From contig DASYBA010000456.1 of assembly GCA_036501005.1 (NCBI GenBank), positions 1 to 30,997 on the forward strand: a DNA stretch of 30,997 nucleotides, given 5' to 3'. Shown piece after piece: positions 5,102 through 6,527 of the stretch. The position numbers were made by a program, and so were the translations under genes. This DNA is from Candidatus Xenobia bacterium (GTDB lineage: Bacteria; Vulcanimicrobiota; Xenobia; RGZZ01; DASYBA01). The notes beneath the pieces are model-generated. The model was not told the DNA's origin and ran no database searches. It saw only the letters and a list, made by a program, of their open reading frames with translations. Each line of letters begins with the position of its first letter. Positions within the stretch are counted from its first letter, which is position 1.

Positions 5102-5602
5102 GTGCGATTTCGTGGGTTCTTGATGCTGGCTCTGGGCGGCTGGTTGACGGTCGCGGGTCTGGCCGCGCCTAGCAGCGGCGGTTCGCATGCCAGTGGCCCG
5201 TCGACCCATCCGGTCAGTGGATACTACTACGGTGCCGGCTACGGAGGCGGCGGCGAGGCGCCCGCCGAGGGGGACACCGGCTACCAGAATCGGTCGTCGG
5301 AGCCGAACCCGAGCGCTCCCCCCGGCTACGATCTGGCGCTTCCGACCTCGTCTCAGCTTCACCGACCATCCCCTGCGGGGGAGTGGTCGCCCCCGTTGTC
5401 CCCGCCGGCCCGCGCCCACCAGGTGGTGGGGCGAATCCTGCAGGTGGCGGGCCAACGCCTGACGCTTCGGACGGCCTCAGGACCTTATACCATCTGGGCC
5501 TCAGGGGTGCCCGACCCCCATGCCGGCGACCTGGTGGTCGCCTGGATCGACGACAACAACCGCTGCCAGAGCCTCTGGCTTGTCCCTCGGCAACATCAGT
5601 GA
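5102..5602 (+). CDS. Secreted low-complexity (Gly/Tyr/Pro/Ser-rich) protein. Its small C-terminal domain is paralogous to the C-terminus of the next gene
   Basis: GTG 5102 preceded by GGAGG (5090-5094) with a 7-nt spacer. Signal peptide RFRGFLMLALGGWLTVAGLAAPSSG. C-terminal GRILQVAGQRLTLRTASGPYTIWASGV...GDLVVAWIDDNNRCQSLWLV resembles the C-terminus of the 5616..6527 protein. Confidence 0.5.
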   Translation: MRFRGFLMLALGGWLTVAGLAAPSSGGSHASGPSTHPVSGYYYGAGYGGGGEAPAEGDTGYQNRSSEPNPSAPPGYDLALPTSSQLHRPSPAGEWSPPLSPPARAHQVVGRILQVAGQRLTLRTASGPYTIWASGVPDPHAGDLVVAWIDDNNRCQSLWLVPRQHQ

Positions 5603-5615
5603 GAAGGAGTCGGTC

Positions 5616-6527
5616 ATGAAAAACCTCATGGGAACGACGTTTACTGCGCTCCTGGCGGCGACGGCGCTGGCCGTCGCGCACCCGGGGGGCGGGGGAGGCT
5701 TCCACGGAGGGGGCGGCGGGTTCCACGGGGGCGGAGGCGGCTTCCATGGCGGTGGCGGGGGCTTTCGCGGCGGGTTCCACGGCGGGGGTGGGGGCTTCCA
5801 CGGGGGCTTCCACAGCGGATTCGGAGGAGGCTTCCGCAGCAGATTCGGCGGAGGCTTCCACCGCGGATTCCGGGGCGGCTTCGGCGGGGGTTTCCATGGG
5901 AATCGCTTCGGTGCGGTCGGTTTTCCGCGACCCAATGCCGGGCGATTTGGCGGGTTCGGGCTCGGCTTCAACCACGGGTTCGGGAACTTCAATCGTGGCG
6001 GGTGGAACGGCGGCTGGGGAGGTACGTGGCCCTGGTTCAGCACCAGCTTCGTCTACGGCGGAGGCTATCCCGGCTACGCCTATGGCTATCCTTACGGGTA
6101 CCTTGGCTTCTACGACCTGTCGCCCATCGACATGTCGATCGACTACCCCGATCTGCCGACCTACCCCCCGTATGGGCCCTCCTATTACCCCAGTCCGTAT
6201 CCGACGATCATTCCGGACGGAGGTCCACCGGCTCTTGCCCCGGTCGCTCCCGTGGCGCCCGAGGAGGCTCCCGCCCCAGTTGGCAAGGCGGTGAAGGGGC
6301 ACATCGTGTCTCTGACCGACAACTCCATCGCCCTGAGCCACGGCGGCCGGGTCGACAGCTACCGCATCACCCCATCGACCGAGGTCTCGCAAGTGCTGGT
6401 GAAGGGCAACCTGGTACAGGTCTTCCTGCAGCCCGGCACGGCGGCGGTCCAGGCGATCGTGAAGTACAGCCCGGTCTACCAGTCGGTGCCCTCATCCCCC
6501 GCGGTTCCCCTGCGCGGCCAGCCGTGA
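5616..6527 (+). CDS. Secreted glycine-rich repeat protein: signal peptide, about 12 GGGGGFH/GGFRGGF heptads, a Tyr/Pro-rich segment, and a C-terminal small beta-type domain
   Basis: ATG 5616 with GAGAAGGAG 6 nt upstream. Signal peptide MKNLMGTTFTALLAATALAVA. Repeats GGGGGFHGGGGGFHGGGGGFH... The C-terminus KGHIVSLTDNSIALSHGGRVDSYRITPSTEVSQVLVKGNLVQVFL is shared with the previous gene. Confidence 0.6.
   Translation: MKNLMGTTFTALLAATALAVAHPGGGGGFHGGGGGFHGGGGGFHGGGGGFRGGFHGGGGGFHGGFHSGFGGGFRSRFGGGFHRGFRGGFGGGFHGNRFGAVGFPRPNAGRFGGFGLGFNHGFGNFNRGGWNGGWGGTWPWFSTSFVYGGGYPGYAYGYPYGYLGFYDLSPIDMSIDYPDLPTYPPYGPSYYPSPYPTIIPDGGPPALAPVAPVAPEEAPAPVGKAVKGHIVSLTDNSIALSHGGRVDSYRITPSTEVSQVLVKGNLVQVFLQPGTAAVQAIVKYSPVYQSVPSSPAVPLRGQP
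5680..5905 (+). repeat. 21-nt (7-codon) periodic coding repeat encoding the G5FH heptads. Degenerate at nucleotide level
   Basis: Visible periodicity ggc ttc cac gg(n) ggc ggc gg(n). Codon choice varies between units. Confidence 0.6.

Follow-up and report, generated by a model that had tools for sequence, protein, structure and literature searches.

A candidate exported GnF[H/R] repeat module in a Candidatus Xenobia protein and in at least 47 other bacterial proteins

A 31-kb contig with 65% GC from the metagenome-assembled genome (MAG; GenBank assembly GCA_036501005.1, contig DASYBA010000456.1) of an uncultured soil bacterium, Candidatus Xenobia (Eremiobacterota), analyzed here over positions 1 to 30 997 (hereafter the window), carries two adjacent genes on the + strand that we here call P1 (5102..5602, 166 aa) and P2 (5616..6527, 303 aa, with a mature protein of 282 aa). 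The second of these encodes a protein built around a Gly/Phe/His/Arg array, and sequence comparisons indicate that P2 is a lineage-specific member of a class of exported proteins sharing a GnF[H/R] module. This module appears to be widespread and unnamed, and to be joined to different C-terminal domains by lineage. As the best explanation, held tentatively and with somewhat less than even confidence, we propose that P2 is an exported, disordered, self-associating and pH-responsive sticker-and-spacer module of the cell envelope having an orphan beta end, with P1 as a shorter companion.

Results

The Gly/Phe/His/Arg array of P2

The array covers aa 22–141 of P2 (5679..6038, + strand) and contains 58 Gly (48%), 22 Phe, 10 His and 9 Arg with neither Asp nor Glu, giving a charge of +9.6 at pH 7 and +18 at pH 5. 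As judged by composition and repeat counts, it holds 11 GF[H/R] units, 5 of them exact GGGGGF[H/R] heptads and 6 shorter, followed by GF, GFN and GW units. His is found in 7 of the GF[H/R] units and Arg in 4, with distances from one Phe to the next of 7, 7, 7, 4, 7, 4, 8, 8, 4 and 8 residues. Composition-preserving shuffles of aa 22–141 gave 1.7 ± 1.2 GF[H/R] units and 0.09 exact heptads, as compared to the 11 and 5 observed, and the observed values were reached in 0 of 20 000 shuffles. An earlier reading of the window, made from the letters alone and here called the sequence-only reading, had described about 12 copies of GGGGGFH; repetition far above chance is thereby upheld, but true heptads number only five and 4 of the 11 units carry Arg.

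At the level of DNA, the five 21-nt units encoding the heptads share 14–18 of 21 bases, with differences mostly at the third positions of Gly codons, and Tandem Repeats Finder reported 76–83% matches over the array. This degeneracy, together with recurrence of the same pattern in 47 other proteins, agrees with the earlier suggestion that the repeat is held by selection on the protein and not by recent slippage. A regular heptad, as also suggested, is not conserved, with the spacing ranging over 4–10 residues within P2 and across its relatives, and any structure needing a fixed register is therefore disfavored. Three known repeat types were considered and set aside, with no test aimed at them, namely RTX-type GGXGXD calcium repeats (Asp is lacking in the array), collagen-like GXY repeats (wrong period) and an in-register polyglycine-II helix bundle (none of the spacings of 4, 7 and 8 is a multiple of 3, nor are they conserved). 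When P2 was modeled with AlphaFold2 from the single sequence, the predicted local distance difference test (pLDDT) score was below 50 for most of aa 1–169, the array included, which would be compatible with disorder.

Relatives of P2 and the shared module

At least 47 proteins (P0002–P0048) matched the N-terminal two-thirds of P2 in phmmer, with E-values from 1e-12 to 1e-3. As the relatives were drawn from the 8000 best word-sharing candidates, 47 is a lower bound. The first GGG, found at residue 24 in P2, lies at residues 22–40 in most relatives and later in five (residues 61–125), and ahead of the array nearly all of them have a segment with a Kyte–Doolittle hydrophobicity of at least about 2; P0020 is without the N-terminal segment. 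The order of elements in the module is signal peptide, GFH units, GFR units, (GFN units), a Trp-rich stretch and a Tyr/Pro-rich stretch. Counted from the start of the array, the median positions in the relatives are 15 residues for GFH, 49 for GFR, 94 for Trp and 114 for Tyr/Pro, with this order kept in 34 of the 40 proteins having all the classes. P2 conforms to the order, its own medians being 32, 48, 112 and 159. The residue following GGF across the relatives is His in 141 cases, Arg in 71 and Gly in 61, with the array of P0016 being nearly all Arg (nine Arg, one His). Acidic residues are few or lacking in the arrays of the relatives.

The array of P2 is followed by an acidic Tyr/Pro-rich block and then a Pro/Ala linker (aa 142–224, 6039..6287, + strand), with 14 Tyr, 19 Pro and 7 Asp or Glu in 83 aa and a charge of −6.5, so that the Tyr/Pro-rich linker seen in the sequence-only reading is real. 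In alignments this segment corresponds to WPYWG/YPY/YGY in the relatives, and P159 and Y162 are nearly invariant. That the array and the aromatic block together form a widespread module with varied C-termini had been missed in the sequence-only reading.

Sorted by motif, the C-termini of the relatives comprised 21 of a DUF3106-like type ('ALRAMPP'), 9 with 'YWV..G.LHYVT', 4 with 'WYYC..YYPY..C' and 2 of LTXXQ type, with P2 and 11 relatives falling outside all four types. Pfam identified DUF3106 in five relatives and LTXXQ (the CpxP/Spy/ZraP family) in two (P0037 and P0043), with E-values down to 1.7e-32. The same Pfam scan found neither LTXXQ (PF07813) in P1 or P2 nor DUF3106 (PF11304) in P2. 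A C-terminal domain of ~70 aa is common to P0002, P0015, P0016, P0020, P0024, P0027, P0033, P0038 and P0044, with the pattern 'IYL(I/F)A.KD..I.AA..YWV.G.TLHYVT....K..PL..VDR..T..LN.ER.V.(F/L).LP'; it has no Pfam match and, from its sequence, looks like an undescribed family. A Cys motif, 'YWYYC....YYPY...CPGGW..V', ends P0004, P0005, P0012 and P0021, also with no Pfam match.

No model in Pfam-A or NCBIfam matched the module itself. Literature searches on the array motifs, on DUF3106 and on glycine-rich secreted proteins of Acidobacteria yielded no account of the bacterial module, and the motif matches found there were eukaryotic only. Exported Gly-rich proteins of low complexity are already known as such, but a module of the P2 type, reused with several domains, appears to be undescribed. 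Within this uncharacterized class, the C-terminal beta domain discussed below was found in P2 alone, and P2 was the sole member that this search recovered from Eremiobacterota; P0008, as another example, is a protein of Terriglobales.

We examined the genomic context of eight class members. P2 itself lies beside a kinase and a response regulator, P0041 (L007, 4001–5873) beside genes for a separate LTXXQ protein and a P-type cation ATPase, P0031 (L008) near a kinase–regulator pair and a gene for an RND adaptor, and P0008 (L001) downstream of an RND efflux operon, with nothing suggestive around P0003 (L003), P0032 (L004), P0016 (L006) or P0035 (L009). The link to LTXXQ, with two fusions and one adjacency, is the only specific hint in these data, and it points toward the periplasm and envelope stress. 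The association of the array with LTXXQ may be recurrent.

The C-termini of P1 and P2

Beyond the linker, aa 225–303 of P2 are basic (charge +3), with the three blocks of the protein thereby running +9.6, −6.5 and +3. Five strands were predicted here by AlphaFold2 (aa 229–233, 237–242, 245–250, 257–263 and 266–271), forming an orphan beta region at aa 229–271 (6300..6428, + strand) with pLDDT values of 50–71. In P1, a signal-like segment (aa 1–21) is followed by a short run of Gly and Tyr (GYYYGAGYGGGG), by an acidic linker rich in Pro and Ser and, at the C-terminus, by a basic region (aa 104–161, 5411..5584, + strand). AlphaFold2, run on the single sequence, likewise predicted five strands there (aa 105–161; pLDDT 51–69).

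The sequence-only reading had held that the two proteins share a C-terminal mini-domain of ~60 aa. BLASTP gave no match between P1 and P2, Smith–Waterman alignment of the C-terminal pieces scored 20 as compared to a shuffle mean of 22.7 ± 4.3, and global and local alignments with BLOSUM62 and BLOSUM45 gave z-scores of −0.6 to −1.3 against shuffles. The probability in hhalign was 0.1%, and phmmer --max with each C-terminal domain against all 362 six-frame open reading frames (ORFs) of the window returned the query only. Formal alignment thus detects no significant similarity, and the shared mini-domain is refuted on the terms that the sequence-only reading itself had set. The sole agreement between the two C-termini is that five strands are predicted in each, at pLDDT values of about 50–70. 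The layouts of P1 and P2 are parallel, with a common domain not demonstrated.

The C-terminus of P2 gave no hits in a word-indexed homologue search, and an exhaustive phmmer search against 1.84 billion representative proteins recovered nothing but the query and three matches, which we rejected as artefacts of long repeat proteins. PDB sequence searches yielded nothing below an E-value of 0.5, and Foldseek with the P2 model against PDB gave E-values of 0.5 or above, with only a vague flavor of an OB or SH3-like small barrel. In general, fold searches using the low-confidence C-terminal models gave nothing significant.

Neither P1 nor P2 matched Pfam-A or NCBIfam at permissive thresholds (Pfam E-values up to 1), in line with the earlier impression of an architecture unlike that of any characterized family. 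For P1, a word-indexed homologue search returned its own record (VGO93_14085) only. Scans of a genome collection, with either whole P2 or the sensor region of the neighboring kinase (the latter for syntenic loci), and metagenome scans, with either P1 or aa 130–303 of P2, were empty after tblastn confirmation. With these four scans being empty, there was no orthologous locus to examine and no profile for either C-terminus.

Genes and export signals

P1 (NCBI VGO93_14085), an orphan, starts with GTG, with a Shine–Dalgarno-like GGAGG read from the sequence 6 nt ahead (5091..5095, + strand), whereas P2 (NCBI/JGI VGO93_14090, 100% identity, labeled hypothetical protein) starts with ATG and has a Shine–Dalgarno GAAGGAG 6 nt ahead, directly past the stop codon of P1 (5603..5609, + strand). 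The GC contents at codon positions 1, 2 and 3 are 0.70, 0.60 and 0.78 for P1, and 0.66, 0.57 and 0.81 for P2, with GC at third positions (GC3) rising to 0.93 in the C-terminal part of P2. For comparison, GC3 is 0.76–0.84 in neighbors of known families and 0.63 in a 392-aa antisense ORF. Because of these GC3 values, the ribosome-binding sites and a hairpin past the stop codon of P2, we conclude that P1 and P2 are real, separate and co-oriented genes. They are probably co-transcribed. The tandem + strand ORFs noted in the sequence-only reading lie exactly at the coordinates given there and both match NCBI gene calls. A frameshift artefact was set aside, with no test aimed at it, since GC3, the start sites and the existence of relatives at the protein level all speak against it.

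The hairpin (6541..6576, + strand), identified by RNA folding and starting 14 nt past the P2 stop codon, has a perfect stem of 15 bp with a 6-nt loop, is flanked by A5 and U5 and has a folding energy of −25.9 kcal/mol (z −2.1). It is likely, from this predicted fold, to be an intrinsic terminator closing the unit. A consensus scan found no promoter or terminator; it missed this hairpin, which was seen by folding only. The hairpin could terminate transcription in both directions, as it lies between P2 (+) and a small ORF at 6805..7098 (−). That ORF encodes 97 aa with a hydrophobic C-terminal segment, has no Pfam match and shows a GC3 of 0.72, its coding status being uncertain.

Both N-termini look by eye like Sec signals, with a basic start followed by a hydrophobic stretch of 15–17 residues. 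In P2 the putative signal peptide (5616..5678, + strand) reads MKNLMGTTFTALLAATALAVA and is followed by HP, with a Lys-containing n-region, a 15-residue hydrophobic core and a cleavage site at AVA/HP. Export of both proteins, as claimed in the sequence-only reading, is hence plausible. The possibility of lipoproteins was set aside, with no test aimed at it, as neither N-terminus contains Cys.

Genomic surroundings in the window

Directly upstream of P1 and P2 and on the same strand are genes for a sensor histidine kinase with two transmembrane segments (3194..4633; Pfam HAMP, HisKA and HATPase_c), whose exact start is uncertain but downstream of 3027, and for a single-domain response regulator of 123 aa having only a receiver and no output domain (4634..5005; Pfam Response_reg, E 3e-21), the start of which abuts the stop codon of the kinase. 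The kinase scored below every NCBIfam equivalog cut-off, metal-sensor equivalogs included, and is for that reason best regarded as a generic kinase. The gap between the regulator and P1 is 96 nt, and neither a consensus scan nor RNA folding revealed a recognizable terminator or significant structure within it. A four-gene transcript of kinase, regulator, P1 and P2 is possible.

Divergent from this unit is a gene at 547..3027 (−) encoding an 826-aa protein resembling major vault protein (GC3 0.84), with a major-vault-protein shoulder domain (PF11978, E 5e-24, aa 517–626) and a vault repeat (PF17795, E 3e-7). A + strand ORF at 148..3078, overlapping the 5′ end of the kinase gene, has a GC3 of 0.68 as compared to 0.84 for the − strand gene, and on that basis is a shadow ORF of the latter. 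Farther away, at 21918..27660, lies a signaling cluster with a SpoIIE-type PP2C phosphatase (21918–23063, −), a PPK2 (23066–23899, +) and two hybrid histidine kinase ORFs. These last two (23915–26134, −, and 25885–27660, +) are convergent and overlap by ~250 bp as listed, and one start has therefore probably been set too far upstream.

Discussion

The explanation we tentatively favor can be formulated as follows. Upon Sec-dependent export, the array of P2 would stay disordered, with its Phe residues together with His or Arg, and with Trp and Tyr, engaging in pi–pi and cation–pi contacts while Gly would serve as flexible spacers. The cationic array could pair with the acidic aromatic block or with anionic polymers of the envelope, and as a shift from pH 7 to pH 5 would about double its positive charge through the 10 His residues, the association would be pH-responsive. 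The module might thereby concentrate or tether the C-terminal domain within a cohesive periplasmic or surface layer, with the small beta domain at the end of the protein serving for specific binding or anchoring. P1, shorter and of parallel layout, would act as its companion and is not a demonstrable paralogue. A role in envelope stress is weakly suggested by the LTXXQ fusions and adjacency found elsewhere in combination with the two-component system located beside P1 and P2.

Comparable sticker-and-spacer chemistry is found in the FG-nucleoporins and in RGG/GAR domains, in which Phe (or Arg) stickers between Gly-rich spacers give cohesive phases. These proteins serve as an analogy only, being intracellular and eukaryotic with other motifs (FG/GLFG or RGG), and no homology is implied. 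The mechanistic model that we propose for P2 is that of the His-rich peptides of squid beak, which phase-separate upon deprotonation of His, with aromatic clustering stabilizing the droplets (PMC6884462). Those proteins, having GHGxY-type repeats, are like P2 as we picture it in being extracellular, disordered and composed of Gly/His/aromatic repeats; they differ in being eukaryotic, in having Tyr for Phe and in the order of the motif, whereas P2 adds Arg at the position of His, and again no homology is implied. A nearly identical motif is that of the armadillidins, cationic and secreted membranolytic antimicrobial peptides of terrestrial isopods with GGGFH(R/S) repeats and ~50% Gly (PMC7017220). 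The array of P2 resembles them in repeat motif, Gly content (48%) and charge (+9.6), but armadillidins are animal peptides of ~53 aa (47–59) with no further domains, whereas in P2 the array makes up a single block within a mature bacterial protein of 282 aa. This likeness concerns the motif only, would be convergent at best by our analysis and permits no claim of homology.

The first alternative to be weighed, unlikely in our judgment, is that P2, perhaps with P1, is a ZraP-like periplasmic buffer of Zn, Cu or Ni or an accessory protein modulating the adjacent kinase, as ZraP does for ZraSR. P2 contains 12 His, 10 of them inside the array, and is encoded directly downstream of a kinase and a regulator. 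The module is elsewhere fused to or found beside LTXXQ, a family that includes the periplasmic Zn-binding chaperones ZraP and Spy (PMC9175090). Points shared with CpxP, Spy and ZraP are a periplasmic location, which is presumed for P2, and an association with two-component systems, two relatives being fused to LTXXQ and one lying beside an LTXXQ gene, and two relatives are found beside RND efflux genes, with the adaptor also matching Pfam models named for CzcB and CusB. P1 and P2, however, carry no LTXXQ domain, and the kinase exceeds no metal-sensor equivalog cut-off. Within the array itself, His and Arg interchange at the same position (7:4 in P2 and 141:71 after GGF in the relatives), some arrays such as that of P0016 (one His, nine Arg) are nearly free of His, the spacing of His is not conserved, and no Cys, Met or Asp is present as co-ligand. 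As Arg is no metal ligand, metal coordination by regularly spaced His, as raised in the sequence-only reading, is weakened as a main role. The interchange of His and Arg after Phe would fit sticker chemistry better than metal ligation, and what is conserved seems to be an aromatic residue and, next after it, a planar or cationic one within a Gly spacer, rather than a set of His ligands. Of the other ideas of that reading, a self-assembling material seems the most plausible general one, and a spore-coat-like function found no support.

An improbable alternative, although compatible with the other explanations, is that P1 and P2 are tandem paralogues whose C-terminal domains of ~60 aa are homologous and make up a new family. 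The genes are adjacent, the layouts run in parallel from the signal peptide over a Gly/aromatic stretch and a Pro-rich acidic linker to a basic ~60-aa beta region, and five strands are predicted by AlphaFold2 in both C-termini. Against this, no sequence test revealed any similarity, with z-scores below zero; neither domain has homologues, so that no profiles can be built; and the models are of low confidence with no significant fold match. Small five-stranded beta domains are moreover very common, and the strand count means little.

We give a similarly small chance to the view that this is a case of young or marginal orphan genes, in which P1 and the C-terminal part of P2 are lineage-specific and do little or nothing, and the array is a drifting expansion of low complexity. 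Neither P1 nor the C-terminus of P2 has a homologue in very large databases, and the sequence comes from a MAG of a poorly sampled class. That poor sampling of Xenobia could itself explain the orphans, however, as the genome and relatives of the kinase were missing from the species-representative genome scan. GC3 is strongly gene-like, also in the P2 C-terminus (0.93), both genes have ribosome-binding sites, and a hairpin follows P2. The array, moreover, has kept its pattern as protein while its codons diverged synonymously, and shares this pattern with 47 proteins.

Finally, a secreted antimicrobial of the armadillidin type, with the cationic array possibly released by proteolysis and attacking membranes of competitors, is very improbable, since its nearly identical motif (PMC7017220), the array charge of +9.6 to +18 with no acidic residue and the signal-like N-terminus are outweighed by a likeness only in composition and motif across unrelated kingdoms, by the 160 further residues past the array with a folded-looking domain among them, by the fusion in relatives to domains of periplasmic type (LTXXQ and DUF3106), a poor fit to a released toxin, and by the window having no adjacent genes for immunity, processing or dedicated export.

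Several points weigh against the sticker-and-spacer explanation that we prefer. Since alignment to P2 was how the relatives were selected, their shared order of elements is partly circular, and compositional bias may inflate the significance suggested by the E-values. Of the eight contexts, four lack envelope-related genes, and the neighborhood signal could be due to chance, given how common two-component systems and RND pumps are here. The signal peptides were judged by eye, and we assume co-transcription with the kinase and regulator from the 96-nt gap alone. With no homologues, both P1 and the C-terminal domain of P2 could be evolutionarily young or of marginal function. Export, disorder, self-association, pH response and the link to the two-component system are all properties that we infer, with phase separation and cohesion deduced from composition alone.

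On a broader scale, although we find this quite unlikely on present evidence, the module might be an unrecognized device, widespread in bacteria, that forms a cohesive and pH-switchable phase of protein beyond the cytoplasm, and the periplasmic domains that different lineages plug into it would be concentrated in an envelope condensate or gel. With the same low confidence, the CpxP/Spy-type chaperones, DUF3106 and the orphan beta domain could be seen as the plug-in domains of such a phase, with the module as an exported bacterial counterpart of the FG-nucleoporin, RGG or squid-beak low-complexity domains. At present, P1 and P2 stand as a well-delimited and uncharacterized gene pair of interesting composition, not as a demonstrated new system. 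As the array is short, repetitive and easily synthesized, the idea is directly testable. If a cohesive or pH-responsive envelope phase were found to be formed, sticker-and-spacer assembly of low-complexity sequences, for which work has so far centered on the interior of eukaryotic cells and on animal materials, would extend to common soil phyla, in their periplasm or on their surface. Dozens and possibly thousands of exported proteins now labeled hypothetical, including those with CpxP/Spy-type fusions, would then become accessible to functional study.

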